A stretch of 64,000 nucleotides of DNA from a virus. Every line of letters starts with the position of its first letter. The stretch's first letter is position 1. The stretch is taken from positions 30,094 to 94,093 of the IMG/VR virus record IMGVR_UViG_3300042988_001309. The stretch is one strand, 5' to 3'. The position numbers were made by a program, and so were the translations under genes. The notes below the pieces were generated by a model. It did no database searches. It was not told where the DNA came from and saw only the letters and a program-made list of their open reading frames with translations. Positions 11,901 through 37,824 of the stretch are shown here, one piece after another.

Positions 11901-14505
11901 CGCCGCCGACTGGAACCCCCGCGACCCCGCCGTGGTGCAGGCCATCGAGAACCAGGCCGAGCGGATGCGCGGCGTGGCCGAGACCACCTACAAGCTCATC
12001 GAACAGCGCATCGCCGAGGCCGAGGCCGAGGACCTCCCGATGCCCGACATCGTCGACCGGGTCGCCGCCGACTTCGCCCGCCAGCGCGAGACCCGTGCCG
12101 AGACGATCGCGGTGACCGAGGTCTCCGCGGCGGCCAACACCGCCAGCTTCCTGGCCGCCAACCAGATCCCTGGCGCCACGCTCACCAAGACGTGGTGGAC
12201 GATGCAGGACGAGCGGGTCCGCCCCGCCCACCGCCACGCCCATGGCCAGGTGGCCGACGTGATGGAGCCCTTCGTCGTCGGTGGCGTGCCGATGATGTTC
12301 CCCCACGACCCGTCCGCCCCGCTGCACCTGATCATCAACTGCCGGTGCCGGATCATCTGGAAGCCGGTGTACGTGATGACCGGAGCGACCGCTCCCAACC
12401 CGGCGCTGGCCAAGGCGTGGTCCAGCCGTCATGGCCAGTCCAAGGCCCGCTTCGGCAACCGGGGCGGGGCTCAGCTCACCCCGGTGGCCCTTGCCCGGCT
12501 CCTGGCCTCGGCGGCCACCCCCGGCAAGCCCGGCGCCGCCGCCCGCGCCACCCTCACCCGGTTCGGGGCCCGTGTCCCCGCCCCGGCGCCGGTGCCGACC
12601 CCGGGAGGCTCGCTCGACGCCGTCAAGGCCCGCATCGCCGCTCTCCACGCCTCCGGGCCCCAGGCTTCGTGGTTCGGGGCGCAACGGCTGCGCAACCAGA
12701 TCGACCCCAACGACCCGGCCAGCCGGGAACGAGCCGTGCAGGCCACCATCGACGTGATGCTGGGCCGAGGCCAACTCGACTACGACCGGATCATGACCGA
12801 CGACGGCCTCAACGCCATCCGGGACCTCATCGACAAGCGCCTGGCCGGACAACCGCCCAAGGGCCGCATCGGCGCGATCGTCGAGGAGACCTTGAACCGG
12901 CGCATGGGCGCCGCGCTGCGCGACGTGGACCCCGACGAGGTCGCCTCGATGATGGCCAGCCGCTACCTGCCCACCCAGGGCGACTGGGACGACAAGGCCA
13001 TCCGCCAGCGCGACCGTGACTACGCCGCCGCGGCTGCCCGTCATGTCCTGGCCGACTACCTGACCCGCACCACGTCGAACTGGCCGCCCGCTCCGGCCGG
13101 GATGGACGACACCCGCCGGGACCTGATCCGCGACTCGATGACCGCAGGCCTGCGCGGCACCAACGAGCCCGGCATCGCCGCCGTGCTCGCCCAGGCCCCC
13201 AGCCCCCGGGCCATGGCCAACGAGGCCGAGATCAACGCCATCGGCTCCGCCATCATCGACGCCGCCCTGTCCGACAAGGTCACCGACCAGGCCGCCCTCG
13301 ACGCCGCCTACGACGCCGCCTCGACGGCCCACCACGCCTCGATGCGAGCCCTGGCCGTCCACGACGACGCCTACGCCACCTCGGCCGCCGCTGCCGTCAT
13401 CGCCTCGTCCAACTCGATGGGGCTCCCCGACCCGCCGGTGACCGGCTGGGTGGCCATCGACACCAAGGTGGACAAGCGCCGAGGGGCGATCACCCTCATC
13501 TGGGGCAACGGTGGGGACACCTTGTCGATGCGGATCACCGCCCACGGCAACATCCACGCCCGCTACACCTCCGCCGGTGGGGTCGAGCGTGACGCCAGCC
13601 CGGCCATCTCCGACCAGGCCGCCTACGACGCCCTCGCCCAGGCCTCGGCCGACCTCCAGACCATGCGGGCCGCCTACGACGCCAGGGGCATGTACGGCAT
13701 CCGCCGGGTCGAGCGCGACGCCATCTTCGACGCCCTCGGCCAGATCCGCCCGTTCGCCAAGGGCCGCACCCCCCTCGTCGCCACCGACAACACGCCCATC
13801 GCCCACAACTTCGGCAGGGGCCACGGCGCCCCGCCGCCGGACCAGACGGTGATCGACGCCCTCACCTGGGCCACCGACTACTACCCGAGCGACTGGGTCG
13901 ACGCCGGTGACGCCAACGGCCCGGTGTACGGGATGGGCTTCGACCGGCGCGGGTTCTTCACCCAGGTCCCCGACCCGAGCGGCAAGATGGTGCCCGTCAT
14001 CATCGCCAGTCGGTCGGACCCGAGCCCGCTGGTGGAAGGTGGCGGCACCCCCGAGTTCAACGAGACCATGGCCCATGAGTACGGGCACTACATGGAGATG
14101 GTGATCCCCGGCCTGACCGACGCCGAATACGCCCTGTGGTATCGCCGCACCAACGGCGGCGAGGGGGCCATCTCGATGAACGAGGCCGAGGGGGTCCCCG
14201 CTCAACTCCAGGCCATGGGCATGGGCTATGGGCCCGAGGAGATCACCGCCCCCGACGAGTTCCTCTACGCCTACATGGGCAAGATTTACCCTGGCGGCAC
14301 CCAGACGAACCGGGAGATGTTCACCATGGCGATCGAGTCGCTCGTCGGTGGCCGCGGCGGCAAGCTCCCCGACGGCTCCCGGCCCAAGAGCTTCGTCCAG
14401 GGCGACCGGGACATGGCCAACTGGCTCGTCGGCCTGCTGGCCACGCTCAACCTCGGACCGGGCAACACCGCCACCACCTCGACCACTGCCGGAGCGCCGT
14501 CATGA
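8947..14505 (+). CDS. MuF (SPP1 gp7-like) minor head polyvalent protein: motif, Pro-rich repeats, ART-like, MuF, motif, zincin HExxH
   Basis: MuF: RAETIAVTEV...KTWWTMQDERVRPAH...INCRC (~12090-12350); ART: MYRG (11197)...AYS...AEEIL; MAHEYGHYME (14074). Confidence 0.85.
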   Translation: MDDAAWVEDWERRAQLYEASLAKIIRAHLTRQERVVIEKLGGAKTRQRYDRHLEAKARFGNSGTAQLTPARLASLMASAAVPGRPGAAARATLTRFGVNWQTGKPLAGGAPSTPAPSAPSAPNTPSVPSAPSGPPPSPLKMVTTLMGNFAPGTPPSPLGNGVIPNAPQSVHNNADIAAKATGYAPGTNGYDLAYYAYLDAAMDHARGLFKVDPTTHDFTASELAVLDAVATHAVQNRIAAGAPSLAMISRNHFPHAFPLAPTSANPNPPLNAPNTPSAPAAPTPPPVPSSPTPLANPGTPTIVFQNPLPIELPGAIYANATNYFGANLINASPPVGAANPYRAFPSQMAYATYVVGAIESIQRNGFQVDPATGDYDPADFAKFDADGAHATFTYYKFGTPPPLMVSASLWPTGAHSPGVSITTTGVAVGAPSSPPPPPPVLMVPSPIGMVAAGSPVSPLLGGGQLPAMPQSIHDAANRRALSVGLSPGFQPGTNGYDLAYYAYIDAVYVQASPIMGQSQVHLDPNTGDFTPADLVLLDNVASSVVASTMIAGVPSSTMVQRGNIPANFANGATPSLNAPNTPSPSSGAGVPQGPSISATVGTPTPAFGGPPTPPAGPMPYPDIHDVPDLPDPPDTTPVPDDQIVPTVSGLDELVAMGPIPRAKSLAATVQAHRMRMRAWIGGDPMRQDLADAAAMWIGDYQLPMREYQEIRSSADYLAKKPRGMKGGRLAMRHAATLMAAAATGPVIPRMYRGITVTSSDLTNMTKPGYRFTGSLDAYSLNRDRALAFGNLRSTSGYGGGNNLVIIEIDGGHGVPVSPLSHATGAVSYLDAEEILSSGVWETVSSSTASETPMTMVRDGMTPGSSPRTVTTIRVRQIVRGYDPVTGDEIPVIAPAAATKAARRDYPEIIPHEPMYPKPSDFTPDQEAMNLLVWVDDGIELPEVKGIHLPGIFDVAAFAKRLIDDALDWLKLMYGDWGSATARHLGAADWNPRDPAVVQAIENQAERMRGVAETTYKLIEQRIAEAEAEDLPMPDIVDRVAADFARQRETRAETIAVTEVSAAANTASFLAANQIPGATLTKTWWTMQDERVRPAHRHAHGQVADVMEPFVVGGVPMMFPHDPSAPLHLIINCRCRIIWKPVYVMTGATAPNPALAKAWSSRHGQSKARFGNRGGAQLTPVALARLLASAATPGKPGAAARATLTRFGARVPAPAPVPTPGGSLDAVKARIAALHASGPQASWFGAQRLRNQIDPNDPASRERAVQATIDVMLGRGQLDYDRIMTDDGLNAIRDLIDKRLAGQPPKGRIGAIVEETLNRRMGAALRDVDPDEVASMMASRYLPTQGDWDDKAIRQRDRDYAAAAARHVLADYLTRTTSNWPPAPAGMDDTRRDLIRDSMTAGLRGTNEPGIAAVLAQAPSPRAMANEAEINAIGSAIIDAALSDKVTDQAALDAAYDAASTAHHASMRALAVHDDAYATSAAAAVIASSNSMGLPDPPVTGWVAIDTKVDKRRGAITLIWGNGGDTLSMRITAHGNIHARYTSAGGVERDASPAISDQAAYDALAQASADLQTMRAAYDARGMYGIRRVERDAIFDALGQIRPFAKGRTPLVATDNTPIAHNFGRGHGAPPPDQTVIDALTWATDYYPSDWVDAGDANGPVYGMGFDRRGFFTQVPDPSGKMVPVIIASRSDPSPLVEGGGTPEFNETMAHEYGHYMEMVIPGLTDAEYALWYRRTNGGEGAISMNEAEGVPAQLQAMGMGYGPEEITAPDEFLYAYMGKIYPGGTQTNREMFTMAIESLVGGRGGKLPDGSRPKSFVQGDRDMANWLVGLLATLNLGPGNTATTSTTAGAPS
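9112..9237 (+). repeat. RATLTRF protein motif copy 1 of 8
   Basis: EAK|ARFGNSGTAQLTPARLASLMASAAVPGRPGAAARATLTRFG. Confidence 0.95.
12442..12567 (+). repeat. RATLTRF motif copy 2
   Basis: QSK|ARFGNRGGAQLTPVALARLLASAATPGKPGAAARATLTRFG. Confidence 0.95.
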
Positions 14506-14849: not shown

Positions 14850-17800
14850 ATGGCGTTCGTGTGGAGATGGGCCCCCGGTGAAGTGAAGGCCACGGTGGCA
14901 GGGACGGCCAACCGTTTCGGCAACCTCGGTGGCTCCCAGATCAACGCCGCCAAACTCGTCTCGCTGGTGACCCGAGCCGCTGTGCCCGGCCGCCCCGGCG
15001 CCGCGGCGCGAGCCACCCTCACCCGGTTCGGCTACGACGCCGCTGGCAACCCACTGTCGGGGCAAGGGCCCACGGTCGCCCAGATGGCCGCGGCGGCCAA
15101 CGTCCCCGGCCCCAACGTCCCCAACGCCCCGAGCCCGTCATCGCCCAACGCCCCTGGTGCGCCCTCGACCCCGAACGCACCCAGCGCCCCCTCTGCGCCG
15201 TTGCCGCCCCCCCAGCCGACGGCGCCGAACGCCCCCGGCCCGGTGTCGTCCTCCACGCCTGGGCCGGGGGCACCTTCCGCCGCTGCGCTGCCAGCGATGC
15301 CCTCGGTGCCCGGCTCGGTGGCCGGTGCGAACACGGTGCCCGTGCTCGACGCCAACGGCTCACCCCGCCCCGTCATGACGGTCGACAAGGTCGACGACTT
15401 CCCGACCTCCAACGCCATCGTCGACTCCTCGATCATCCTGTCCGACGCCCTCACCGAGGTGGTGACCACCATGGGTGGCACCTACGGCGACGACACCCCC
15501 GAGAACTACACGGCGGTCAACGCCTTCGTGACCGAGGCCGCCCAGACCCTGGTGGACCTCGACCTGGCCGCCAACTTCGACGCCGGGCTCGGCGCCAACC
15601 ACCGCCCCTGGCCCACGGCCGACCAGCTCTACACCGCCGTCACCCGTGGCTACCAGGCGGCCTGGCAGTCGGTGGCCAAGCTCCACGGCGACACCCCGAG
15701 CGACCAGAGCACGACCGACGAGGTGCTCACCCCCGGGCCGGGATGGCACTCGCCGATGACCGGCCGGGACTACCCCGGGATGCCCGCCGACGTGCCCCTG
15801 CCCGACTACTTCGACAACGTCACCATGGGGCCCGAGCCCACCTTGCCGAGCGGCTCCCCGCGGCCCCCGCTGCGCCTCCCCGATCCCAATCTGCCCCAAC
15901 GGCCGACCGTCATCGTCAACCAGGACGGCCGCCTGTTCAGCCTCATGGCCTCGATCTCCTCGGCGTTCCGCACCACCTACGGCAAGGACTCCCCGGAGCG
16001 CCGCATCGCCATCGGCGCGTTCCTGGCCGAGACCTCCCAGAGCGCCACCGACTTCGGCTTCAAGCCCACGGGCTGGGGCTCGTTCGCCAACGGCAAGAGC
16101 CCGACCGACGAACAGCTCATGGTCATCGCCGACCGGGGCCGCCGCTCGGCGTTCCAGTCGGTCGCCGACTTCCACGACGCCCAGCTCGCCCCCGCGGCCG
16201 TCACCGAGCGCGACGACATCTATCTGCCCGACCGGGGCGAGCAGACGATCAAGGTCAACTCGCTCACCGACGTGGTCGACGACGCCACGCTGCCCTACGT
16301 TGAGATCCCGCCGAGCTGGGGCAACGGCGGCCCGGGAGCCGCCAAGAGGCCCTCCGACGCCGAGCTGGCGTGGAAGTTCTCCCTCGACTACGGCGCCCCC
16401 GGAACGGTCGCTCAGCGCCTCGCCTACAACACCTGGGCCGTGTGGGCCTCCAAGTGGCGACGCAACGACCCCGCCAAGTACCGGGTCCTGGCGATGTCGA
16501 CGGCCGAGGCCCAAGGCATCGAGGAGAACGCCCGGTTCGACATGGTGACCAGGGTCCTGGCCCACCCCTCGACCGAGGCCATCGCCGTGCCCGGCTCGCG
16601 TTCGGTGCAAGACACCGAGCACCGCGAGTGGGTCGAGCTGCCCGCTGGCGCCGGAGCCCCCGACCCCAGGGCCAACCCGGGCAAGACCTACACCGCCGCC
16701 GGACTGCGCGATGGGTCGGACCCCTACGTCCCCCGCCCGGTCGGGCTGGCCCGCTCGGGGAGCGCGTTCGACAAGCTCATCGACAACCCCATCGACGCCG
16801 AGTGGATGACCAGCCACGGCTATCCACCCGACCCGGTGCTCCTCGCCGTGGCCCAGTCGGCGTGGGCCGATGCGGTGAACGAGCGGACCTTCTACGCCGA
16901 GCGCAGGGGCTACTCCGTCATCCCCTCGATCAACACCATCGTCCTCGACGCCGAGACCGACATCGCTCGACGCCTGGCCGACGCCCAGTGGTCGCGCACC
17001 CAGGACCCGCCGGTGCCGATCAACCTCGGCTGGGGAGACGGTGTCAAGGACGACGACTACTCGGTGCTCACCGACCCGTACCTGTTCGGGCCCAACGGCC
17101 GCACCGGCGCCAAGAACCTGTGGGACCTCAACTTCGACGCCTGGGAGAAGATGGGCGGGGACCGTAGCTCCGTCATCGCCCGGAGCACCCAGCTCATCGC
17201 CGACCACAAGTACGCGCCCGACGACGTGACCCCGCTGCTGCGCACCGACTTCCGGCGCGGCTCACCGGCGATCGACATCCCCCACGACTACCTCGACGCC
17301 TACCTCAAGACCGGCGGCATGGACGTGGCCCGCCGGGACCGCTCGGTGCTCGCCCAGAACGACCAGTTCGCCATGCTCTCGTTCACCCCCGACTCGGCCT
17401 ATGCCCAGTGGATTGCCGTGGACATCGCCAAGCGCCGCGTCGACGGCGAGGCGACCCGTCATGACGACATGATCCAGGCCCGCATCGACGACGCCACGGC
17501 CCAGGACCTGATCGCCTTCGCCCAGGGGCTCGCCGGTGTCGATGTCAGCGACCCGACCGCCCCCCAGTACCCGGCCGGGCGCGACACCTACATCGTGGCC
17601 CTGGCCGCCATGGGCAACCAGTTCGACCAGCTCCCCAAGATCATCTCCGGCAACGACATCGACGCCGCCAAGGCCGCCGCCGTGACCGCCGTCAAGGCCG
17701 CCTCGATGGCGCAGTTGCCTGGCCTGGAAGCCGCCCTCGCCTTCGCCAAGTCCGGCGACCCCAACGACGACTACGGCTGGGCCGACCTCGACGCCGAGTA

Positions 17801-21953: not shown

Positions 21954-21975
21954 GGGTGCATCATGCCACAGAGGT

Positions 21976-22020: not shown

Positions 22021-22026
22021 GACCTC

Positions 22027-23748: not shown

Positions 23749-23871
23749 GTGTCGACCCATGCCCGCCAGGCAGACCTGGCTGTACGGCCCCGGCTATGTC
23801 CGGTTCCGGTCGCACGCCTATCACCGCCAGCTCAAGCGGGCGCGCACCTGGAAGATGCGCAGGAGGGCACG

Positions 23872-24123: not shown

Positions 24124-24323
24124 GCGACACGGAAGTCCAATACGGCCGCCGCCTCGACTGCGCCATGAACGGCTGCAACCCGCCACACGGCGACGACGGC
24201 ACCACCTACGCGTGGCCCGAGACCTGGGGCGAGCCCGATGTGACCGAGCCGCTCCCGATCAACAACCACGCCGCCGTGTGGGTGAAGCGGACCATCGTCA
24301 TCAGTGACTGGGAGGAAGCGTGA
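24120..24323 (+). CDS. hypothetical protein
   Basis: GGAGG RBS, ATGA overlap. Confidence 0.55.
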   Translation: MSDTEVQYGRRLDCAMNGCNPPHGDDGTTYAWPETWGEPDVTEPLPINNHAAVWVKRTIVISDWEEA

Positions 24324-24754
24324 GCGCCGATCACCGCATCCATGTCACCGGCTGGGACGACGGCCCGGTGTACGAGCTGGAGTGCCTCCACGGCCCCGAC
24401 GAGTTCGTCCCGTACTACGAGCGACCCTCCGGCCCGTGCCGGTGCATCGAGGACTTCCCACCGGGCTGCACGATGTGCCTGCCGGTCGAGAACGACGACG
24501 ACCCGGACCACTACGGCTGTGAGAACTACGGCGAGGCCAACACCCTCGGCCCAGAGTGCCAGACCAACCCCGGAGCGCCCGGCGAGTGCTGGCTGACCGA
24601 CTTCTGGAACGAGCTGGGCACCGAGAACATCCACGGCGTCATGCACGGCCCCCCGCCGTGGGACATGGTCACCGAGGTCTCCGCCGACGAGTACCCCGAG
24701 ATGGGTCAAGACCCCGAGCAGGCCAAGGCCCGCCTCGACACGGCTGCGTCGTGA
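24320..24754 (+). CDS. Cys/acidic-rich hypothetical protein
   Basis: GGAGG RBS; 8 Cys. Confidence 0.6.
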   Translation: MSADHRIHVTGWDDGPVYELECLHGPDEFVPYYERPSGPCRCIEDFPPGCTMCLPVENDDDPDHYGCENYGEANTLGPECQTNPGAPGECWLTDFWNELGTENIHGVMHGPPPWDMVTEVSADEYPEMGQDPEQAKARLDTAAS

Positions 24755-24810
24755 ACCTCTGCCCGTCATGGGTCGGCCCCTACATCACCCCGAGCGAAAG
24801 GAAAGTTGAC

Positions 24811-25233
24811 ATGACCGATGGAGCCCACCTGGGCCTCACTGCCGAGGCCTCCCTCGATGCCGTGCTGGGAAACGCGCGCCCGAAAGAGAACAGTGGGATG
24901 AACCCCGTGGAGATGCGCGACTACCTGATGAGCCAGAACCAGCCTGATGGCTACTCCGGCACCGCCGCCTACTGCGCGCGTCTCCTGCTGGAGGCGTTCC
25001 TCACCGAGCCCACACTGGCTCGCCTGCCCGGCGACGACGTGTGGGACCACTCCGATGGTTTCGAGAACCGCAAGCTCGTCACCAAGGGCCTGTGGAGCAC
25101 GCTGAAAGAGCGGGGCTCGGAGATCGCCGAGCTGGACCTCACCGGCTTCATGTGGGGCTGGGCCGTCAATGCCGCCCGGTTCTGCGTCGAGCTGGAGCCC
25201 GTGGCGAACCCGGCGATCATCACTGTCACCTGA
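24811..25233 (+). CDS. hypothetical protein
   Basis: AAGGA RBS before MTDGAHL...; LTGFMWGWAVNAAR motif. Confidence 0.65.
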   Translation: MTDGAHLGLTAEASLDAVLGNARPKENSGMNPVEMRDYLMSQNQPDGYSGTAAYCARLLLEAFLTEPTLARLPGDDVWDHSDGFENRKLVTKGLWSTLKERGSEIAELDLTGFMWGWAVNAARFCVELEPVANPAIITVT

Positions 25234-25281
25234 GCCCGCCCATCAGAGTCATCGAGGTTGACCTGGTGCGATGATGGCGTC

Positions 25282-25572
25282 ATGCGGATCACCCTCGGGG
25301 CAGGACTGGAAGTGAAGGCCGGACCGCAAGGCGGGGCCGACCGCAACCGTGGGGGCGCCGAGCAACTGCGCCGCTACTGGACGGTCGGGCCCGGCGCGGC
25401 CCGTATCCGCTGGGGCACTCCCGGCGACTGGACGCGCTGCGTCCGCCAGCTCACCGAGCACATGGGCCCTCGCGCCCGTGGCTACTGCCAGCTCCGTCAT
25501 ATCGAGGCCACCGGCGTCGGGACCGGCTCCAAGCTGAACCCCGGCCGCCGCAAGGGCCGCAAGCGCGCGTGA
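25282..25572 (+). CDS. small head-module protein (LRRYW...IRWGTPGDWTRC...GYC domain)
   Basis: leaderless -10 GATGAT at 25270; resembles a domain I recall from actinophage head-maturation proteins; GLEVK|A site. Confidence 0.6.
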   Translation: MRITLGAGLEVKAGPQGGADRNRGGAEQLRRYWTVGPGAARIRWGTPGDWTRCVRQLTEHMGPRARGYCQLRHIEATGVGTGSKLNPGRRKGRKRA

Positions 25573-25573: not shown

Positions 25574-28500
25574 ATGACCGCCGACCAGGGCCGCATCTTG
25601 GCCATGGCGATCCTGCTGGAGGGCGCGATCCGAGACGCTCCTGCCCTCCCCGGCAAGGGTCCGCTCGCCTCGATCGCCGAGGTCTACAACCGCCTGCTCG
25701 CCGACCCCTCCGATCGCTACGGCGGCCCGGCGTTGATCGAGTTCGTGCTCGACGCCGCCCGCCGTCATGGCGCTGCGGTGCCCGGCGGTGAGGGCAAGTC
25801 GATCGAGCAGAGGTTCGGCAACCGGGGCGGCAAGCTCACCCCCGACGGCCTGCTGCGCCTCACCTCCACCGCCCTGCTCCCCAACGACCGAGGCCGAGCG
25901 GCACGGGCCACCCTCACCCGCTTCACCGGCCGGGGCAAGCTCGACCTCCCCGACGGTGATCGCCGCCAGGTCGACCACGCCCAAGCCTCGACGCTGTTCA
26001 ACCGTGAGCGCCAGCGCAACCTGTTCGGCGCCCAGGCGGGCCATCTGTCGGCCGTGGAGATCGGCAAGCGGTTCACCCTGCCCGAGTCGTTCAAGGCCCG
26101 CGCCATCGGGGACCTGATCGCCCAGGACCCCTCCCGCGGCACCGAGTACGGCGGGACCGGCCGGTATCAAGACGGCTTCTACAGCGGCAACTGGAGCGTC
26201 GTGCTCGCCAACGCCCAGCGGCTCGACCCGAGCCTGGACGAGCGCTCCCCGGTCGGTGACGTGCTCGCCGCCTCCCAGCCGCCCGCCATCGGCTTCAACA
26301 ACCCCGAACAGGACCCCGCCTCGATCGCGCTGGCCGCCCGCCTCGCTGCCTCCGCCGACCCCGACGCCGAGCGCCGGGCATGGGCCACCGAGCAGGGCTG
26401 GACCGCCGAGGCCGGATACGTCGCCGCCCTCCAGGGCTGGTGGATCAACGACAGTTCCTCCCCGTGGGCCCAAGCGATGACGCTGGCCGCCGCTCAACGT
26501 CTCGGCGACCCGAGCGACATGGCCCGCTCGCTCAGTCACCTCCAGGCCAAGGCCGCCGAGTGGGAGCCCGGCACGCTGGTCGGCCAGGACATCCTCGACT
26601 CCGCCGAGGGCCCGGCGCTGCGCCAGGCCGTCATGGCCATCTATGACCACACCCAGGCCCGCCTCGCCGACTACGGGCTCCGGCCCGACGACCTGATCGA
26701 GCTGTACCGAGGGATCGGCCCCGACAACGAGATCCGCACCGGCGACACCGCCATCGCCGACCCGCTCACGTCGTGGTCGTCGAACCCCGCCGTGGCGTTG
26801 TCGTTCACCAAGGTCCGCCGCGGCGGATCGGTGCTCAGCGGCTCGGTGCCCGCCCGCTCGATCCTCATGCTCATCACCGACGCCACCGGCTACGGCGGGC
26901 TCCACTACGCGAAGTGGGAATGGCACCTCGACTCCCAAGAGGAGTTCGTGACCCTCGGTGGCCCGGTGAACGTGACGGTGACCAGGACCCAGGACCCGGT
27001 CGGGCTCCTGCACGGGTCGACCCCGGTCGAGTCGGTGATCGCCCGAGGTCCCGGCTTCAAGTCGGCCCGGCGCGAGGTGTACGTGGACGGCGACAACTGG
27101 ATGCACGTCGTGCGCTCCGCCATGCCGTCATCGGGCATGAAGGCCCGGTTCGGCAACGCCGGGACGGCCAAGCTGTCCGCCGCTCGCCTCGCCAGCTTGA
27201 TGGAGCGAGCCCCGACGAGCCCCCAGGCGCGAGCCACGCTCACCCGGTTCGGGATCGACTGGCATCGCCCGGCCGCTCCGGCCGCTCCGGCCAAGAACCC
27301 CGCCGTGCCGGAGCGCCTTGTCCTCGGCGTGCCCGGCTGGGACCAACAGTTCACCGCCCACCCCGAGGCGATCGAGCCGGTAATGCTGGCGCTGGAGGCC
27401 GAGGACCGCCTGCGCGCCTACGCCGCCAACGTCGGCACGGTCACCGACCGCTGGTCGGGCCGCTCCGAGGACTATCGGACCACCATCTTCAACAACGCCC
27501 AGTCGTTGCAGGCCGTCATGAAAGCGACGGTCAACGACCCGGACAACATGCCGGTCGATGTGGATTGGACCTCCGAGACCGTCGACATCGCCCACCAGAC
27601 ATGGGTCGACGCTCGCCCGTTCACCGACTGGTCCGTTCATGGCCCCGAGGACCGTTCGGCGTGGCTGCTCGCCGCGGCCAAGCGCCGGGTCTCGGGCGAG
27701 GACTGGGGCGTGGCGGTGACCAACGTGGCCCGCCGCCTGGCCGACGGCACGGCCCCCGAGGACACCTACGACCCCAACGACCAAGACGCCAACCAGCGGG
27801 CCGGGGTGACGAGGTACGACCCGTTCCTCGATCTCCAGCACGGCTGGGCGCTCTACAACGGTCTGCGCGACCCGGCGGTGACGACCCCCTCGCCCACCCC
27901 GCTGTATCGGGGCATGTCGTTCACCCCTGACGGCAAGGCCATCGCCGTCGGGGACCGGATCGACATCGCCGCCGCCTCGTTCTCCCTGTCGAGCGACGTG
28001 GCCGACTCGTTCGCCCTCGACCGCAACTTCGACGAGGAATCTCAGGTCGCCACCGATGACGAATCCCTCGCCGCCACCGATCGGATGCGAGCCGAGCACT
28101 ACCCCAACGCGTCGCGCGTCGTGTACGTCGCCGCCCCCGGCACCCCGGGCTTCGATGCCACCAGCTTCTCGGTGCGCGGCGAGCAGGAGTGGCTCGTTGG
28201 CGGCACGTTCACCGTGACCGCCATCGACGAGGGCGACCGCGTCCGCTACATCCACATCGCCCCCGCTGCCACCAAGGCCGCACGCCGGTGGCGGATGGAC
28301 CCCACCGACTTGCCCGCCGATCTGGACTGGCCGGTGCGGCCGTCATCGGGGATGAAGGCCCGTTTCGGCAACGCCCACTCCGCCAAGCTCACCCCGGCCC
28401 GCCTGGCCAGCCTGCTGTCGCGTGCGGCCACCAGCCCCCAGGCGCGAGCCACGCTCACCCGGTTCGGCGTGGATTGGCGCACCGGCGCCATCGCCAACCC

Positions 28501-30451
28501 ACCGGCCCCCCGGGTGCCTCGCCGCACGCTTCCCCGTCCGGCCCGTGACGGCAAGTGGCACCTCGTCGGCAACGTCGATGTCCGGGCCCTGCCCACCGAC
28601 CCGGCCGACACCTGGCGGGTGTCGTGTGAGCGTTGTGGCGGCACCGGCTACGTCACCAGCGGCAACGCCGCCCACGGCACGATCTGCTACCGCTGTGGCA
28701 GTGGGGGGGACGAGCCCGCCGTGCCCGTCAACACCGCCACCTCGCCGCTGCCCCCCAAGCTGCTCACCTGGGACGGGGTCGAGCTGCTCGACCAGCACCG
28801 CGCCCAAGTCGCCGCCGACGAGCAGGCCCGCAACGAGGCCCGCAAGGCCGAGTTCGTCCGCAAGCTCACCGTGTTCGACAACGCCGTCATGGCCGACCCC
28901 GAGTTCGGGTCTCGCATGGCCCGCCTGCGCTACCTCGACGACATGGCCCAAGGGGCAACGACCGAGCCCCCATCGGCATCACTGGCCATCGTGCGCCACG
29001 ACGCCGTGGCCGACGCCGACGTGGGCAACACGTTCGACCTGACCCCGCACCGCGCCGAGCTGGCCCGAGCGTTCGACGCCGCCGAGGCCTACACCGCCCG
29101 GGTCTACCCCGAGCTGGCCGCCGAGGTCGGCATCGGGCCGGAACGCTCCGGCCGAGCCCCGAGCCCCAAACAGGTGTCGTACCTGCGCAACCTGCTGCGC
29201 CGCTCGGGCATCAACCCCGCCGAGGCCGACACGGTCGACGACTCGACCATCGCATCGGCGCTCATCGACGCGCTCAACGAGGGCGACACCCGCCGGGCCC
29301 GCTACCTCCTCGACGCCTCAGCCCCGCCGTCATCGGAGCTGGGTCCAGTGCTCGACGCCCTGCTCGCCCGCCACCAGTTCGACCCCGACGCCGAGGAGGC
29401 TCCGCTCCCGGGGCTCAACCCTGACCGCGTGGTCGGCGACATCGGCCGCTCGCTTCTCGACCAGGGCTTCGCGCTACCCGACCAGCTCGCCGCCCGGCCA
29501 GCGAACGATCCGGTGACCTCGATCGGGCTCGACGGCGCACTGTTCTCCGGCATCCGCGACGAGGGCGAGGCGTCCACGTTCGGGGAACTGCTCACCGCCT
29601 GGGCGCGCTTGCGCGAGCAACGAGCCGCCGACGAGGTCTGGCAGGGCACGCGGGACATCCTCGACGAGCAGGACGCCCTGGCCGACGCGGCCCGGCGCAC
29701 CGGGGCGCCTTACCCCGAGGCCGAGATCGCCCGCCTCGGGGATCGACTGCGCGCTCGGGAGGCCGAGCTGACTGCCCAGGCCGAGGCCAAGTACCGCATC
29801 GGGCCCAGCCTGGGTTACGCCGTCATGATGCAAGACGCCTGGAGCGAGACCACCGCCGGTGACCGTTCGGCGGCCATGATCACCGCCGCCGCCAACCAGT
29901 TCCCGAACCCGACGATGACCGAGGGGCTTCAAGCGTTCCGGCAGTTCCAACCCGGCTTGGCCGCATCTGCCGAGACGATCGTCAACGGCCCAGAGGCCCC
30001 GGCGATCGGCGCGTTCATGGCGACCACCTACGCCGCCACCCAACGGTTCCTCGCCGACAACGGCTTCCCCCCGGGCTCGACGGTGACGCTGTATCGAGGG
30101 GTCTCGACCGGCGCCGACCAGGTGGGTGGGGAGGTGTTGGTCAACCCGCTCTCATCGTTCACCACCGACCGCTCCATCGCCGAACGGTTCTCGCGTGTCG
30201 ACTGGGGCCTGGAGGGCCAAGGCGGGGTGATCACCGCCCAGGTGCCGGTCGAGCGGATCTTCTCGATCGCCGGGATCGGCCCCGGCCACCTCGCCAGCCG
30301 GGAAGTGGTGGTGCTCGGGGGACGGCTCCCGGCATCGGCCGATCTGACCTTCCGGCCGACCTACAAGGGCCTGGGCGGGCCGTCATACATCGACGCCGAC
30401 AGCGACTGGCTGCGCGTGGCGGCCCGGTTGATCGCCTCCGCCAGCGCCTGA
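25574..30451 (+). CDS. 1625-aa polyprotein with three motif+ADP-ribosyltransferase modules and a DnaJ-type Zn finger
   Basis: LYRG...SWS...QEE (26705-26943); LYRG...SFS...EQE (27905-28189); LYRG...SFT...SRE (30092-30304); CERCGGTG/CYRCGSGG (~28625-28705). Confidence 0.8.
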   Translation: MTADQGRILAMAILLEGAIRDAPALPGKGPLASIAEVYNRLLADPSDRYGGPALIEFVLDAARRHGAAVPGGEGKSIEQRFGNRGGKLTPDGLLRLTSTALLPNDRGRAARATLTRFTGRGKLDLPDGDRRQVDHAQASTLFNRERQRNLFGAQAGHLSAVEIGKRFTLPESFKARAIGDLIAQDPSRGTEYGGTGRYQDGFYSGNWSVVLANAQRLDPSLDERSPVGDVLAASQPPAIGFNNPEQDPASIALAARLAASADPDAERRAWATEQGWTAEAGYVAALQGWWINDSSSPWAQAMTLAAAQRLGDPSDMARSLSHLQAKAAEWEPGTLVGQDILDSAEGPALRQAVMAIYDHTQARLADYGLRPDDLIELYRGIGPDNEIRTGDTAIADPLTSWSSNPAVALSFTKVRRGGSVLSGSVPARSILMLITDATGYGGLHYAKWEWHLDSQEEFVTLGGPVNVTVTRTQDPVGLLHGSTPVESVIARGPGFKSARREVYVDGDNWMHVVRSAMPSSGMKARFGNAGTAKLSAARLASLMERAPTSPQARATLTRFGIDWHRPAAPAAPAKNPAVPERLVLGVPGWDQQFTAHPEAIEPVMLALEAEDRLRAYAANVGTVTDRWSGRSEDYRTTIFNNAQSLQAVMKATVNDPDNMPVDVDWTSETVDIAHQTWVDARPFTDWSVHGPEDRSAWLLAAAKRRVSGEDWGVAVTNVARRLADGTAPEDTYDPNDQDANQRAGVTRYDPFLDLQHGWALYNGLRDPAVTTPSPTPLYRGMSFTPDGKAIAVGDRIDIAAASFSLSSDVADSFALDRNFDEESQVATDDESLAATDRMRAEHYPNASRVVYVAAPGTPGFDATSFSVRGEQEWLVGGTFTVTAIDEGDRVRYIHIAPAATKAARRWRMDPTDLPADLDWPVRPSSGMKARFGNAHSAKLTPARLASLLSRAATSPQARATLTRFGVDWRTGAIANPPAPRVPRRTLPRPARDGKWHLVGNVDVRALPTDPADTWRVSCERCGGTGYVTSGNAAHGTICYRCGSGGDEPAVPVNTATSPLPPKLLTWDGVELLDQHRAQVAADEQARNEARKAEFVRKLTVFDNAVMADPEFGSRMARLRYLDDMAQGATTEPPSASLAIVRHDAVADADVGNTFDLTPHRAELARAFDAAEAYTARVYPELAAEVGIGPERSGRAPSPKQVSYLRNLLRRSGINPAEADTVDDSTIASALIDALNEGDTRRARYLLDASAPPSSELGPVLDALLARHQFDPDAEEAPLPGLNPDRVVGDIGRSLLDQGFALPDQLAARPANDPVTSIGLDGALFSGIRDEGEASTFGELLTAWARLREQRAADEVWQGTRDILDEQDALADAARRTGAPYPEAEIARLGDRLRAREAELTAQAEAKYRIGPSLGYAVMMQDAWSETTAGDRSAAMITAAANQFPNPTMTEGLQAFRQFQPGLAASAETIVNGPEAPAIGAFMATTYAATQRFLADNGFPPGSTVTLYRGVSTGADQVGGEVLVNPLSSFTTDRSIAERFSRVDWGLEGQGGVITAQVPVERIFSIAGIGPGHLASREVVVLGGRLPASADLTFRPTYKGLGGPSYIDADSDWLRVAARLIASASA
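25796..25930 (+). repeat. RATLTRF motif copy 4
   Basis: EGK|SIEQRFGNRGGKLTPDGLLRLTSTALLPNDRGRAARATLTRFTG. Confidence 0.9.
27140..27253 (+). repeat. RATLTRF motif copy 5
   Basis: GMK|ARFGNAGTAKLSAARLASLMERAPTSPQARATLTRFG. Confidence 0.95.
28355..28468 (+). repeat. RATLTRF motif copy 6
   Basis: GMK|ARFGNAHSAKLTPARLASLLSRAATSPQARATLTRFG. Confidence 0.95.
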
Positions 30452-30679: not shown

Positions 30680-33600
30680 ATGACCCTGGAGTTCAAGAGC
30701 GCCCAGAGCCTGACCGCCGTAGACGCAAACCAGGGGATCGCTGAGGCGATCGTCTCGGTCACCAACATCGTCGACCACGTCGGCGACAAGATCATCCCCG
30801 GCGCCTACGCCGAGACCCTCAAGACCCGTCGCCCCAAGGTCTGCTGGAACCACAAGTGGGACAACACCGTGGGCAAGGTGCTGGAGATCGTCGAGTTGAT
30901 GCCCGGCGATCCACGCCTGCCCGACAAGCTCAAGACGATCGGGGCCGGGGCGCTCAAGGTCAAGGTGCAGTTCAACCTCAACTCCACCCGAGGCCGCGAT
31001 GCCTGGGAGGACGTGAAGTTCTACGGCGAGGAGGGCGAGTGGTCGATCGGCTACGACGTGAACGGCCCGACGGGCAAGAGCCGCAACGTCGGGGGAGTGC
31101 GGGAACTGCACCAGATCAACCTGTTCGAAGTCAGCCCCGTACCGTTCGGCGCCGCCCCGCTCACCGGAACCCTCGCCCTCAAGAGCCTCGGCGCACCGAG
31201 CGCACCTGAGGCCGTCATGGGCCGGGTCCCGTTCGACAACGCCGTGAAGGCCTACGGCGCCGGTGCCCAGCTCTCCGCCGGTGGACGAGCCCGCCTCACC
31301 GCACGGGCCGCCCTGCCCGGTCGCGAGGGGGCCGCGGCGCGAGCGACGCTCACCCGGTTCCTCGGCGGCGGCAAGCCCGAGGCGCCACGCCCGGCGGCTC
31401 AGCCGACCCATTTCATGCCCCCGGACGCCCCGACGTTTCGCTTCCCCGAGAGCATCGACAACCTGCTCGCCGCCGGACCAGACGCCCTGTCGAGGGCCGC
31501 GTGGGCGCCCGTGGAATGGGACGAGACCGAGGACCCCTACTCCTACGAGAGCCGGTACATCATCGGCGGGCCCGACTCCGTCGTGACGCTCACCCCGGAC
31601 CCCGGTCAGGGGCGGGCCTTCCTGTCAATCCCCGGCAACGACAGCCTGGAGATCAGGACCGTCGGCGATTTCGAGAAGGCCTACACGGCCATCGACCGCG
31701 GCTTCGTCGGCAAGCTGGAACTGCGGGATCTCTCGGCTCGCAACATCGCCGTCCTCATCGAGGACAACATCCGCGAGTCCGTCAATGCCGATGGGCGCCG
31801 GTCCGCCACGGTCGACGGCGCCCCGGGGTTCGGCCTGGTGTTCACCCCCGACGGCCTGAACGTGGTCACTCCTGACGGGGCCGTGAAGCGGGTCAATGAG
31901 GTCGACGACCTGCGCTTCGTCCTCGGCAAGCCCCCCTATCCGCACACCAGCCTCACCGGCTCCACCCCCAAGCCGAGGGGGACGACCTACGTGGTCCCGG
32001 CGGGGCGCATCCCCCGGAACCTGGGGGCGATGACGACCTCCGAACAGTACGAGGACATGGATCGCTACAACGCCTTCGTGGCGGCCGGTGGCGAGGGGCG
32101 CACCTGGATTCCCACCGTCCGCGACTACCCCGACCCTGGAGGTCACGTCATGAACTGGCCGAAATCCGCCGAGCCCGTCATGGACCCGCTCGTCGCCGAC
32201 TACCTCGATCTGACCGGCAAGGCGTGGACCCGGGGCGGGAAGCTGTCCGACGCGGGTCGAGCCAAGCTGGTGGCACGCGCCGCTGTCCCCGGCAAGGAAG
32301 GCGCCGCCGCCCGCGCGACGTTGACCCGCTACCTCGGCGGCGACAAAGAGGCGGCCGGACGGATGATCCAAGCGCACCGTTCCGGCGACAAGCTGCCCGA
32401 CGCCGCGGCGACGGCCAAGATGCCGTCGCGTCGCGAACGGCGCCTCATCGAGGCCGCCACCAACGGTGACAAGGAAGCGGTAGCCGCGTTGCGCGACATG
32501 GGTCTCGAAACCGACGGCCTGCCCGGCTACGGCTTCCAGCGCCCCGAGATCGCCGAAGGACTCGCCAGCGTGGAGCGCGCCGGGTTCGCCCCGTTCGTCC
32601 GTCAATGGAGTCGGGCGACCGGCAAACCGCAAACGGCCAGCGAGATTTACGGCATCCCCCGAGAGTTTCGCGACCCGCCCCCTGGCTATTCGACGAGGCA
32701 GGAATGGACCGATGCTGTCGGCAGGGGTGTCCGCGGCGGCGACGGCACGGCGGCCAAGCCGTTCCTGGTGAGCGGTGATCTCCCCCCGGAAGAACGGCAA
32801 CGACTGTTCAACGCCCTCGCCGACTCGTCCGCGGACGGGGTGCGTGGCGTCGCGATCGGGGACCCCGAACTTGGTGTCTCCGACCCGAAACTCACCGAAC
32901 GTGCCCGCGCTCGGGCGGGGAATGACCTGCTGTCGTCGGCGTTCACCACCGCGAAACTCGACGAGTTCCACGCCGACTTCGACGGACGCAAAGACCTGTC
33001 CGACGCGATTCAATCCGGCACCGGCAGTCAACGCGACCCGTACATCACCGACAACCCCGAAGCGGCCGCCATGGCGATCGGCAAAGGCAGGTTCGTCGAG
33101 CTGCAACAGCCCGACGAACTGGCGACCATGATCGACGTGATCGCCGACTGGGTGAACGAGGCCAAGGCCAAGGGTGAGAAGGCCCCGACCTACGACCTGT
33201 GCCGGGCCATGGTCAAGGGCACCAACCTGTTCTGCATCGAGTCCAAGGGCATCCCCCGCATCAAGATGCCCCAGCTCTCTGGCATCCCGACGCCGGGCTC
33301 TCCGGCCGACTCGTTGCCCAAGCGGCCCAACGGCGAGGTCGACCTCGTCCCGTTGTTCCTCCAGCACCTGGCGTCCAAGGGCATCCGCTCCCAGCGCACC
33401 TCGGTGAAGGCCAGCCACCTGCGCGCCAGCCAGAACGAGCTGAACGGCGGCAAGGTGTCCGGCATGGTCCAGTCCATGGCCGCGGGCAAGCTCCCGCCGG
33501 GCTCGATCATCTCGACGACCGACAACTACGTGGTCGACGGGCATCACCGCTGGGCGGCCACCATCGGCACCTCGATCAAACAGGGCGACGATCTCATGGT

Positions 33601-35092: not shown

Positions 35093-36415
35093 ATGGCAAC
35101 CACCGATGTGGACTCCCGCCTCCGGGAACTCAAGAGCGCCTGGAGCCGTTTGGAGACCGAGAACGATTCCATCCTGGCCACCGCACCCGTCAACGACGGC
35201 GTCCTGACCATCGACAACGACCGTCGCCGTGCGTTCCAGAAGAACGTCGCCGACATGACCGAGATCAAGGGCCTCATCTCGGACCTGGAGGCTCAGTCGG
35301 GCCTCAAGGCCTGGGCCTCGGGCGCTGCTGGCTCGGTCGCCGCGGCTCACGCCGCCGGTGCCGCTGCCCGCCCGCAGTTCAAGTCGCTCGGCGCTGCGTT
35401 CGCCGAGTCCGACGAGTTCAAGTCGTTCATGGCGAACGGCGGCATCAAGGGCGGCTACATGAACAGCCCCTGGGCCGTGCCGGGCATCGACCTCGGCGGC
35501 CAGGCCAAGAGCCTCGGCGGCCTGGAAGTCAAGGATGTCTACACGGCATCGCCGACCGGCGACATCGCCACCGGCTTCGCCCCGATCACCCGCGAGGCCA
35601 TGGTGCCCCGCCCGTTCCGCCGGATGCGGGTCCGTGACCTGTTCCCGGTCCAGAACACCTCCTCGTCCGTCATCGAGTATTTCCGGGTCACCGGCTTCGT
35701 CGGCAACTCGTCGGCCTCGGTGGTGCCCGAGCGTTCCGGTGGCGTGTTCGCCGCTGCGCCGCAGACCTCGCTGAGCTTCACGTCGCATCAGAGCGTCGTG
35801 CGCAACATCCAGCACTGGGAAGCGATCCACCGCACGACCCTCGCCGACACCCCGGCGCTCCAGGGCGTCATCGACAACGAGCTGCTCTACGGCTTGCGCC
35901 TGCGTGAGGACGATCAGATCCTCAACGGCACCGGCACCAGCGAGGACCTGCTCGGCCTCATGGTCGACCCCGACGCCCAGACCTACAGCCGTCCGGGCAC
36001 CCCGGCGGCCAACGAGAACAAGGCCGACGACATCCGCCGTGCCGCCACCAAGGTCATCTTGAGCTACTACGAGCCCACCGGCGTCGTGATGCACCCCAAC
36101 GACTGGGAGGACATCGAGCTGCTCAAGGACTCGACCGGCGCCTACGTCCTGGCCGTCGCGGTGGCCATGGGTGCCGAGCAGAAGCTGTGGCGTCTGCCCA
36201 TCGTCGACACCCCGGCCATGACCGAGGGCCGCTTCCTGGTCGGCTCGTTCGGCCTGGGCGCCAAGCTCTACGACCGCCTGGAGGGCTCGATCCGGGTCGC
36301 CGAACAGCACAGCGACTACTTCCTGCGCAACGCGGTCGTGGTCATGGCCGAGGAGCGGATCGGCATGACGATCCCGCGGCCCGAGGCCTTCGTCAAGGGC
36401 ACCTTCGGCGCCTGA
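35093..36415 (+). CDS. major capsid protein (HK97 fold, with N-terminal delta domain)
   Basis: AAGGAG RBS; RVRDLF, EDDQILNGTG, VVMHPNDW, LWRLPIV, FLRNAVVVMAEER...RPEAFVKG. Confidence 0.95.
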   Translation: MATTDVDSRLRELKSAWSRLETENDSILATAPVNDGVLTIDNDRRRAFQKNVADMTEIKGLISDLEAQSGLKAWASGAAGSVAAAHAAGAAARPQFKSLGAAFAESDEFKSFMANGGIKGGYMNSPWAVPGIDLGGQAKSLGGLEVKDVYTASPTGDIATGFAPITREAMVPRPFRRMRVRDLFPVQNTSSSVIEYFRVTGFVGNSSASVVPERSGGVFAAAPQTSLSFTSHQSVVRNIQHWEAIHRTTLADTPALQGVIDNELLYGLRLREDDQILNGTGTSEDLLGLMVDPDAQTYSRPGTPAANENKADDIRRAATKVILSYYEPTGVVMHPNDWEDIELLKDSTGAYVLAVAVAMGAEQKLWRLPIVDTPAMTEGRFLVGSFGLGAKLYDRLEGSIRVAEQHSDYFLRNAVVVMAEERIGMTIPRPEAFVKGTFGA

Positions 36416-37786: not shown

Positions 37787-37824
37787 TTCGTCGATCGGGC
37801 CCCTCAACCAGAGAGGAGCCCGTC

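Follow-up and report, generated by a model that had tools for sequence, protein, structure and literature searches.

Bacteriophage T4 carries Alt, an ADP-ribosyltransferase (ART) of the R-S-E class, in its head, where it is trimmed by the prohead protease before being injected with the DNA. T4 internal proteins are similarly directed into the prohead by a short N-terminal leader, which the protease removes. Within seconds of infection, injected phage ARTs rewire the transcription, translation and defence of the host; to our knowledge, only T4 Alt is well studied among them. Packaging and injection of Alt are covered in work on polyvalent proteins, large multidomain effectors that are encoded next to MuF or other head genes and for which packaging and injection are predicted (PMC5512222). 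The ART is their commonest modifying domain, with one to twelve copies per protein, and multi-ART polyvalent phage proteins are known, in which the ARTs are of the H-Y-D (Tox-ART-HYD2) type; proteolytic release of the domains by zincin-like peptidase domains has been proposed (PMC5512222). Head-packaged ARTs have been described (PMC5512222, PMC9503650), and effector domains including ARTs enter the capsid attached to MuF (PMC5576092; PMC9503650).

Here, we analysed a window of 64,000 nt (positions 30,094 to 94,093 of IMG/VR record IMGVR_UViG_3300042988_001309) from a 94-kb, high-GC phage genome, in which a single ORF of 1625 codons runs without interruption and with uniform coding bias (Table 1). 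The surrounding genes are arranged in the order terminase, portal, MuF, 2180-aa protein, 1625-aa gene, S78 protease polyprotein, scaffold-like ORF and capsid protein, which places MuF and the portal on one side of the 1625-aa gene and the prohead protease and capsid on the other, beside head genes as for polyvalent proteins. These proteins have at least two effector domains per polypeptide; the one studied here has three apparent ART modules, a zinc motif and an unassigned region. On balance, we think it probable that the gene encodes a polyvalent head protein with three R-S-E-type ART modules in one polypeptide, which is packaged in the virion and injected.

Table 1. Features of the 1625-aa gene and of the neighbouring head genes; positions are those of the window, and a slash marks the bond within a Lys-small site.
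Feature	Position	Strand	Basis or detail
ORF P0001, putative polyvalent head-module protein	25574..30451	+	single ORF, 1625 aa, GC3 0.91
Tag copy 1 (aa 77-119), K75/S76 ahead	25802..25930	+	tag profile
Helical subdomain and ART1 (aa 245-512)	26306..27109	+	BLASTP to unit 3, E 1.8e-15; alignment; profile match 217 bits
Linker PSSGMK (aa 518-523) and tag copy 2 (aa 522-561)	27125..27256	+	candidate cut K523/A524
Unit 2 body (aa 594-895), helical region and putative ART2 core	27353..28258	+	homologues P0003, P0004, P0005; hhalign; language-model lead
Linker PSSGMK (aa 923-928) and tag copy 3 (aa 927-966)	28340..28471	+	candidate cut K928/A929
Two CxxCxGxG motifs (aa 1018-1045)	28625..28708	+	four Cys, DnaJ-type zinc-knuckle pattern; no Pfam match
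Region of ~320 aa of unknown fold, zinc motif to ART3	28709..29665	+	no Pfam match
Helical subdomain and ART3 (aa 1365-1615)	29666..30418	+	Pfam DRAT 25.4 bits vs cut-off 25; model pLDDT 69; fold matches
Tag copy, MuF 1852-aa protein (aa 56-98)	9112..9240	+	tag profile
Second tag copy, MuF protein (aa ~1166-1208)	12442..12570	+	tag profile
Tag copy near N-terminus of 2180-aa protein	14907..15035	+	tag profile
Prohead serine protease domain (Peptidase_S78), proposed processing enzyme	30680..31243	+	Pfam E 1.8e-12
Tag copy directly after S78 protease domain, 1052-aa protease polyprotein	31244..31366	+	tag profile
Second tag copy, protease polyprotein	32216..32338	+	tag profile
Major capsid protein, two K/SLG sites (aa 97, 139)	35093..36415	+	Pfam; sequence

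The initial annotation had described three units in this protein, each with a tag, a helical region and an R-S-E core, and a motif search of the 1625-aa protein recovered this layout, with all three tags and all three cores at mapped positions. LYRG was located at aa 377, 777 and 1506, the Ser motifs at 400, 802 and 1528, and QEE, EQE and SRE at 455-457, 870-872 and 1575-1577, respectively. Thus, the strand-1 Arg (R379, R779, R1508) lies in an aromatic-Arg-Gly context in all three modules, the strand-2 Ser-x-Ser/Thr motif is present with S400, S802 and S1528 invariant in two family alignments, and each module has a catalytic Glu (E457, E872, E1577), the -2 position being non-canonical in ART3. 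As the initial annotation had noted, this position differs in every module, with Gln in ART1 (Q455-E456-E457, preceded by a 10-aa insertion), Glu in ART2 (E870-Q871-E872) and Ser in ART3 (S1575-R1576-E1577), which suggests that the modules differ in acceptor specificity or that ART3 is an NADase. The units are unequal in length, as 76 aa precede the tag in unit 1 and unit 3 has ~400 additional residues of unknown fold. Units 2 and 3 are introduced by one and the same 12-mer, PSSGMKARFGNA (its PSSGMK part at aa 518 and 923), and their leaders share 68% identity over 66 aa (BLASTP, E 4.7e-21). Together with the ART1-ART3 alignment (aa 245-512 with aa 1365-1615, helical parts included; BLASTP, E 1.8e-15), this places the likeness of the units beyond chance.

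By these alignments, ART1 and ART3 are paralogues of DraT-like type in which a helical subdomain precedes the ART core, and the LYRG Arg and strand-2 Ser are invariant in their family. The whole protein matched Pfam DRAT (PF07357) with 25.4 bits against a cut-off of 25, and the excised ART3 domain scored 23.8-24.5 bits; the match in ART3 spans only profile positions 153-251 of 256. DRAT was matched by six of the seven members of the ART1/ART3 family, while a Pfam scan of the excised ART1 and ART2 segments gave no DRAT match. A structural model of ART3 (pLDDT 69), with a strand at unit residues 156-166 followed by a helix at 169-174, was compared with the PDB using Foldseek, which returned Vis (8.6e-4), cholera toxin A1, ExoS and ART2.2, the non-helical top rows being nearly all ARTs. 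VIA-align likewise ranked Vis first (Z 5.8 over 156 aa), ahead of ART2.2, CPILE-a, HopU1, C2-I and C3, with every Z below 8, so that the structural scores are moderate. Eleven viral entries of BFVD matched the model at E<=1e-3, led by a MuF 'head morphogenesis' fusion (5.9e-11), and weaker matches (E 0.012-0.023) included a portal fusion and annotated phage ARTs. An ART fold is therefore supported for the modelled ART3, at moderate scores, and paralogy to ART3 supports reading ART1 as an ART too. PDB sequence searches with unit 3 returned no match. Unit 1 gave PDB sequence matches to designed ankyrin proteins, which we took for chance because the score counts one stretch of 46 residues again on each repeated unit, a lone DARPin giving ~21 bits.

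A comparison with Alt and VIP2 had been suggested for all units. The ART3 model matched solved R-S-E ARTs; none of the units matched PF03496 (ADPrib_exo_Tox, Alt/VIP2), even at E<=10. T4 Alt is thus an analogy for the three modules and not a family assignment.

ART2 appears to stand apart. Its body had no Pfam match and no PDB sequence match, and an exhaustive search of representative proteins with unit 2 found only three relatives (P0003, P0004 and P0005), P0004 being the sole match of a profile of the ART2 core. The Arg, Gly, Ser and both Glu residues are invariant across all four family members, and the hhalign alignment of the ART2 profile with that of ART1/ART3, in which Arg, Ser and Glu are in register, had a probability of 86% (E 4.8e-6). 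This profile-profile match and the conserved R/S/ExE support a putative ART-type catalytic module in ART2. The nearest language-model clusters carry PF03496 (score 0.95), which serves as a lead only. An AlphaFold model built from a four-row alignment had a pLDDT of 42 and is unreliable for any claim of fold; its best non-helical match was Vis (E 0.057; Z 5.2 over 135 aa, 22% identity). No similarity was detected by hhalign between the ART2 profile and the VIP2-like ART of Gordonia phage Chidiebere. P0003, which combines MuF with a topoisomerase IB, and P0005 are MuF fusion proteins, and by these searches ART2 is a rare family, separate from ART1/ART3, that is also found in other MuF-type polyvalent proteins. 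Of the claim that one gene encodes three ARTs, the ART3 part was supported by Pfam DRAT and fold, the ART1 part by paralogy, and the ART2 part by the profile match and the conserved R/S/ExE, with a poor model.

Activity may not extend to all three modules. The first Glu of the ExE motif is needed for transfer to Arg and not for NAD+ hydrolysis in iota and C2-type toxins; this Glu is present in all of the DraT-like homologues found, and is replaced by Ser in ART3 (SRE) and Gln in ART1 (QxE). Because its SxE is unlike the ExE of the homologues, ART3 may be an NADase, or its transferase activity may be altered or lost. A reading in which only some modules are active transferases, ART3 being an NAD+ glycohydrolase or an inactive binding domain and ART2 (given the pLDDT of its model) possibly ART-like with another role, is doubtful but carries appreciable weight. 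Against it, no module has lost its Arg, Ser or catalytic Glu, the coding bias of the ORF shows no break, and C3-type ARTs and those that modify nucleic acids are active with QxE and other variants.

The zinc finger reported for unit 3 was present as a CxxCxGxG motif, in two copies (aa 1018 and 1038) where one had been noted; since neither has a Pfam match, the zinc assignment is one of pattern only. A language-model search with the middle region of unit 3 was uninformative (best score 0.77).

A profile of the tag found exactly eight copies over the 94-kb genome, in four proteins (MuF, the 2180-aa protein, the 1625-aa protein and the prohead-protease polyprotein); all are in frame, at module starts and in head proteins only. 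The 41-residue tag, predicted with low confidence to form a helix-loop-helix, has a net charge of +5 to +7 and a pI of 12, and the proteins that carry it are otherwise acidic. In the 1625-aa protein, RFGN occurs at 80, 525 and 930 and TLTRF at 113, 555 and 960. The DNA of tags 2 and 3 is ~80% identical with an identical run of 35 nt, in agreement with the duplication or recombination proposed in the initial annotation. Together with the 77% identity between MuF tag 1 and 132 nt of the 1625-aa gene spanning tag 3, this would also fit a tag that is a mere relic of DNA duplication or of a recombination hotspot, with no function at the protein level. We regard such a relic as highly improbable, as the peptide core ARATLTR is invariant in the eight copies while its codons vary synonymously, and the in-frame placement at module starts of head proteins argues against it as well. 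No relatives of the tag were found by tblastn against phages, by alignment-derived patterns in viral contigs or metagenome contigs, or by the tag profile on 63 related loci; thus, the role of the tag rests on a single genome.

Lys-Ala was observed at the aligned start of six of the eight tags, and Lys-Ser or Lys-Ala 2-6 residues upstream in the other two; Lys followed by Ala or Ser is not a rare dipeptide in the 1625-aa protein (10 of 26 Lys). Seven of the eight KSL tripeptides in the ORF set fall in portal, MuF, protease, scaffold-like and capsid proteins, and the K/SLG sites of the capsid protein resemble the K103/S104 cut of the HK97 capsid (PMC10275583). A complex prediction with the tag alignment and the capsid protein scored 0.00 ('no answer'), which speaks neither for nor against binding. 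We propose that the tag would bring its carrier proteins into the assembling procapsid, where the HK97-like S78 prohead protease probably cuts after Lys and before a small residue, so that a cut at Lys-Ala or Lys-Ser just upstream of each tag would separate the modules. The freed ARTs would remain in the head, enter the host with the DNA and modify different host targets with NAD+. More broadly, and tentatively, as we hold it somewhat short of an even chance, the tag may be a portable address and cut mark: any module behind a tag would be loaded into the HK97-type procapsid of this phage and then freed at a Lys-small site by the prohead protease, effector cassettes (ARTs, MuF-linked domains, a ParB-like domain) would be shuffled among the four polyproteins by recombination in tag DNA, and related phages would have their own lineage-specific tags to the same end.

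The head-module position of the gene and a tag common to MuF and the prohead protease fit packaged, injected cargo. The analysis shows the gene, its motifs and homologies and, at moderate scores, the ART fold of ART3; packaging, cleavage, ejection, activity and targets of the 1625-aa protein are inferred. Alternatively, the ARTs could be made late and act unpackaged in the producing cell, like T4 ModA/ModB, with the tag as an oligomerisation, DNA-binding or regulatory element. A peptide this basic could bind nucleic acid, and the protease polyprotein has in common with the scaffold-like ORF a C-terminal tail that is distinct from the tag; this tail could be the true capsid-binding signal, in which case the tag would serve only in processing or in some other role. 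We nevertheless find action in the producing cell unlikely, given that the gene sits between MuF and the prohead protease, that the tag is confined to four head-module proteins including the protease, which must enter the procapsid, and that other phages have this ART fold in fusions with MuF and portal proteins (BFVD). Furthermore, ~44% of phage ARTs lie in head-packaging contexts (PMC9503650).

The initial annotation had suggested that, with the MuF and 2180-aa proteins, the phage may carry five ARTs, a number that was not supported, as neither protein matched a Pfam ART or the two ART profiles. By hhalign, the ART profiles were not significantly similar to MuF aa 701-960 or to the C-terminal segments of the 2180-aa protein, which were therefore not counted as ARTs. 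An R/S/E-like pattern was seen at MuF aa ~745-850.

The 1625-aa gene had no match among 50,697 GenBank phages (nucleotide and protein), in a whole-protein pattern scan of viral contigs or among PHROGs families, and in a near-length search of 5.8 billion proteins it matched only itself. The phage is of actinobacterial type. Among named phages, those of Gordonia and Brevibacterium are nearest to it by capsid protein, and these have a VIP2-like ART in their structural gene block. Two related phages have a giant ORF directly upstream of the capsid gene that ends in the same DraT-like ART, and in ~15 of the 63 related loci, giant head-module ORFs have another short segment in common.

R-S-E ARTs are common as toxins, and relatives of ART2 occur in MuF fusion proteins; the modules could accordingly form a MuF-type polymorphic toxin array against rival bacteria or against superinfecting phages, set free when the cell lyses or borne on the particle, and not a cocktail for host takeover. 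MuF-linked toxin domains are described in temperate phages (PMC5576092). We consider a toxin array quite unlikely, because none of the nine small ORFs from 21389 to 25572 had a Pfam match (Macro and ARH included) or was recognised as immunity-like, the 1625-aa gene is separate from the MuF gene, and the Gordonia and Brevibacterium relatives keep their ART among structural genes.

Under the packaged-cargo reading, a single gene combines three R-S-E ARTs that have diverged and differ in their specificity-determining residues, which makes this locus a compact source of new host-modifying enzymes. The tag shared with the maturation protease offers a concrete model for how large effector sets could be loaded and cut in an HK97-like capsid. 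If true, the model would explain how polyvalent proteins are handled and could serve to bring foreign cargo into phage capsids; like the loading peptides of encapsulins, the tag would then act as a cargo-loading code, in this case for the capsids of tailed phages.

Among known systems, a genomic counterpart is gp26 of Chidiebere, a Gordonia myophage with a 41% identical capsid protein, whose ART gene also lies between portal and capsid protease; it is, however, a single 362-aa VIP2-like ART gene without the tag. DraT (PF07357) has the R-S-E core in common with ART1 and ART3, but ART3 lies at the Pfam cut-off over only the last 100 of 256 profile positions, SxE (ART3) and QxE (ART1) are present, and neither a nitrogenase context nor a DraG partner was seen. 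MuF fusions resemble this locus in that the ART2 relatives P0003 and P0005 and the best BFVD match of ART3 are all of this kind; the ART array, in contrast, has a gene of its own and no MuF domain, and the common tag is its only link to MuF. The likeness of the tag to a T4-type capsid targeting sequence is an analogy only, drawn from its distribution and Lys-small sites. Compared to the leaders of T4 Alt and internal proteins, it has 41 residues, is basic and repeated, and occurs at internal positions in addition to the N-terminal one; the prohead protease belongs to the HK97 S78 type instead of being gp21. A further likeness is to the polyvalent proteins of Iyer, Burroughs, Anand, de Souza and Aravind (2017), as a multi-ART effector coded beside head genes. 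In place of the zincin processing proposed for that class (PMC5512222), the 1625-aa protein has no peptidase domain within it, and a leader in common with the prohead protease marks each module. As the described multi-ART polyvalent proteins carry H-Y-D ARTs and the modules here are of R-S-E type, from two families, the array differs from them within a known general kind.

The ORF for the three-ART protein (ART, ADP-ribosyltransferase) ran for 1625 codons without interruption (GC3 0.91) in a window of ~70% G+C, which covers bases 30094-94093 of an IMG/VR virus record of 94 kb with a completeness rating of 94%. Pfam placed it inside a head-assembly block (see the table), and the small ORFs between the 2180-aa gene and the three-ART ORF had no Pfam match. 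The capsid protein shared 40-46% identity with its counterparts in Brevibacterium phage Cantare and the Gordonia phages Chidiebere and GMA6. Chidiebere has tail-sheath and baseplate proteins and is therefore a myophage, and in its genome a 'VIP2-like ADP-ribosyltransferase toxin' gene sits in the interval between portal and capsid protease. Just 3' of the capsid gene in the window lies the gene for a 565-aa protein with TROVE (Ro60-like) and VWA domains.

Features of the head-assembly block, with window positions and tag copies.
Feature	Position	Strand	Tag copies	Basis
Terminase	1399-2919			Pfam
Portal	7313-8968			Pfam
MuF protein, 1852 aa	8947-14505		2	Pfam
Tag segment with CGA codon (example)	9205-9231
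MuF ART-like region, aa ~745-850	11179-11496	+
2180-aa protein	14850-21392		1, at N-terminus
Three-ART ORF, 1625 aa	25574-30451	+	3
ART1 loop insertion, aa 435-480	26876-27013	+
D-x-D-x-W peptides	27059-27124, 28274-28339, 30370-30448	+
Tag segment with CGA codon (example)	27227-27250
IAPAA-TKAARR after ART2	28253-28288	+
Protease polyprotein, 1052 aa, starts with Peptidase_S78 prohead protease	30680-33838		2, first immediately past protease domain	Pfam
DGHHRW	33536-33559	+
C-terminal tail, protease polyprotein	33790-33838	+
Scaffold-like acidic ORF, between protease polyprotein and major capsid protein	probable start near 33852
C-terminal tail, scaffold-like ORF	34860-34904	+
Major capsid protein	35093-36415			Pfam
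TROVE/VWA protein	37690-39387	+		Pfam

Every motif listed in the initial annotation was present where it had been placed, namely LYRG at aa 377, 777 and 1506, Ser motifs at aa 400, 802 and 1528, QEE, EQE and SRE at aa 455, 870 and 1575, respectively, CxxCxGxG at aa 1018 and 1038, and two identical copies of the 12-mer PSSGMKARFGNA at aa 518 and 923. When the three units were compared pairwise by BLASTP, aa 245-512 aligned with aa 1365-1615 (26% identity, E 1.8e-15) and the leader of unit 2 with that of unit 3 (68% identity over 66 residues, E 4.7e-21); judged by these alignments, the internal homology among the units is real. A short acidic D-x-D-x-W peptide followed every ART, and those of ART1 and ART3 aligned with one another. 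In phmmer, the loop insertion of ART1 matched designed ankyrin proteins of the DARPin D12 series (triple-repeat constructs gave E 1.7e-10, and one DARPin by itself ~21 bits), a likeness to one ankyrin repeat that is probably due to chance.

ART3 matched Pfam DRAT (PF07357) at 25.4 bits (cut-off 25), with the match confined to the final 100 positions of the 256-position profile. Of the five weak homologues found (P0006-P0010), three carried a PF07357 annotation; none of the three core residues (YRG Arg, Ser and catalytic Glu) varied in the joint alignment of the ART1/3 family, and DRAT was matched by 6 of the 7 family members. In an AlphaFold model of ART3 made from the joint homologue alignment (pLDDT 69, pTM 0.65), a helical subdomain preceded the beta core, whose successive strands carried Arg, Ser and Glu. 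The top Foldseek matches of this model in the PDB were almost only ARTs (Vis toxin, 8.6e-4; further, cholera toxin A1, ExoS, ART2.2, CDTa, Arr and ParT). VIA-align over 48,161 chains ranked Vis first (Z 5.8, 156 residues), ahead of a Listeria ART toxin, ART2.2, CPILE-a, HopU1, C2-I, C3, SpvB and VIP2, with only short helical matches between the ART rows. There were 11 viral matches in BFVD at E<=1e-3, the best being a MuF protein of 1390 aa ('phage head morphogenesis'; 5.9e-11); weaker matches (E 0.012-0.023) were to a portal fusion and to proteins annotated as phage ARTs. For this predicted structure the scores were moderate and the family consistency was clear; we take ART3 to have an R-S-E ART fold, and ART1 likewise because it is paralogous to ART3.

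ART2 had no Pfam match and no sequence match in the PDB, and an exhaustive search of 1.84 billion representatives returned only three relatives: P0004, a stand-alone form of 333 aa, P0003, with MuF and topoisomerase IB domains, and P0005, with HNH and poly(A) polymerase-like domains. Across all four proteins, the residues R, G, S and E-x-E did not vary. A profile of unit 2 and P0004 matched the ART1/3 profile with Arg, Ser and Glu in register (probability 86%, E 4.8e-6), and in a protein-language-model atlas ART2 lay nearest to clusters carrying PF03496 (score 0.95; 13 of 30 matches in that family set). The ART fold that the initial annotation had ascribed to each unit was supported for ART3, at moderate scores, by structure comparison; the ART2 model was poor (pLDDT 42), and its best non-helical match, again Vis (Foldseek E 0.057; VIA Z 5.2, 135 aa, 22% identity), is a hint only. 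ART2 likely has the ART fold.

DraT-like homologues, including those of related phages, carried ExE at the catalytic Glu, and alignments gave QxE for ART1 (after a 10-residue insertion), ExE for ART2 and SxE for ART3, in agreement with the earlier observation that the residue two before this Glu differs among the modules. This difference suggests that the modules act on different acceptors, or that the transferase activity of ART3 is altered or gone. The MuF protein contained YRG, then Ser with a helix-like stretch, then AEE; against the ART profile its Arg and Ser regions lined up without significance (E 0.47), and this region may, from its sequence, be a fourth ART-like module. The proposed total of five ARTs in the phage was not supported. 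The reading of the protein as an injected cocktail of ARTs was supported in part: it has three ART-type modules and lies in a head-cargo context, and its injection, activity and targets are inferences.

The ~41-residue tag that leads each unit was not confined to this gene: tblastn, together with a profile derived from the tag's own copies, located exactly 8 in the 94-kb genome. Its ARATLTR core was invariant despite synonymous codon differences, which argues that the peptide is under selection. CGA, usually a rare codon in high-GC genomes, encoded the invariant Arg of ARATLTR in 5 of 8 tags. The tag was strongly basic (net charge +5 to +7, pI ~12), unlike the acidic tag-carrying proteins and scaffold-like ORF, and was drawn as two short helices in a low-confidence model. 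Tags 2 and 3 of the 1625-aa protein shared ~80% DNA identity with a 35-nt identical run, a likeness compatible with duplication or recombination. Searches for tag relatives in GenBank phages, in IMG/VR and in JGI metagenome contigs returned none, and neither did 63 loci with capsid proteins 28-59% identical (most 46-51%).

Mature HK97 capsid protein starts with Ser-Leu-Gly. The S78-type protease of HK97 cuts the capsid protein at K103/S104 (PMC10275583). In the phage ORF set KSL occurred 8 times (5.3 expected), 7 of them in the portal, MuF, protease polyprotein, scaffold-like ORF and capsid protein, five head proteins with ~11% of residues, which suggests that K/SL marks prohead-protease sites like that of HK97. 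The capsid protein had K/SLG at aa 97 and at aa 139, the position equivalent to the HK97 site. Lys-Ala stood at the aligned start of 6 of 8 tags, and Lys-Ser or Lys-Ala 2-6 residues upstream of the other two (the first tags of the 1625-aa and 2180-aa proteins). Taken together, these observations point to a model in which the prohead protease would cut after tag-adjacent Lys residues and separate the modules, a suggestive reading only, because 10 of the 26 Lys of the 1625-aa protein precede Ala or Ser. A near-identical peptide of the form IAPAA-TKAARR followed ART2 and, at MuF aa ~891-903, the MuF ART-like region, with a comparable K-S-ARR after ART1; it may be a second Lys cut site, which would release a 27-residue spacer. 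The protease polyprotein and scaffold-like ORF had a common C-terminal tail, A-x-Y-x-ALKA-x-x-PH, each shortly after a CxxC pair, which by analogy with the common C-termini of lambda C/Nu3 or the HK97 protease tail may be capsid-binding. The C-terminal part of the protease polyprotein also held DGHHRW, a ParB/sulfiredoxin-like nuclease signature, in a part without a Pfam match.

Among related phage loci, L030 and L032 had a giant ORF immediately upstream of their capsid gene (1689 and 3001 aa, respectively) that ended in the same DraT-like ART, with ExE, and additionally had a Zeta-toxin-like kinase. In ~15 of the 63 loci, a segment of 45-160 residues (38-75% identity) was common to large ORFs (>=300 aa) on the upstream side of the capsid gene; in most of these loci the segment held an Asp-rich motif, itself preceded by Lys-Ser or Lys-Gly sites, and the carriers had Zeta-toxin or sigma-70 region 4 domains. 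Thus, this phage group repeatedly shows short segments common to its head-module giants, each lineage with its own sequence, which would fit a role in loading or processing. The Asp-rich motif read FDP-x-A-x-DGD-x-DG...QEGT...ERP (L008, L031, L043, L045, L058, L061 and others); these IMG/VR phages had 42-55% GC, and their ORF upstream of the capsid gene began with DUF3721, together with the Zeta-toxin or sigma-70 region 4 domains.

Polyvalent proteins were defined by Iyer et al. 2017 (PMC5512222), whose ARTs are of the H-Y-D clade, contrasted by those authors with the R-S-E Alt/VIP2 clade. In a second study, ~44% of phage ARTs are reported from a gene context that points to packaging in the head, frequently as MuF fusions (PMC9503650). 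By comparison with both studies, the 1625-aa protein is a member of this known class, the polyvalent proteins. It differs from those of PMC5512222 in carrying three R-S-E ARTs of two families rather than H-Y-D ARTs, and is distinguished by specificity motifs that differ among all three ARTs, by the absence of a peptidase within the protein and by a leader that is repeated and also carried by the maturation protease.
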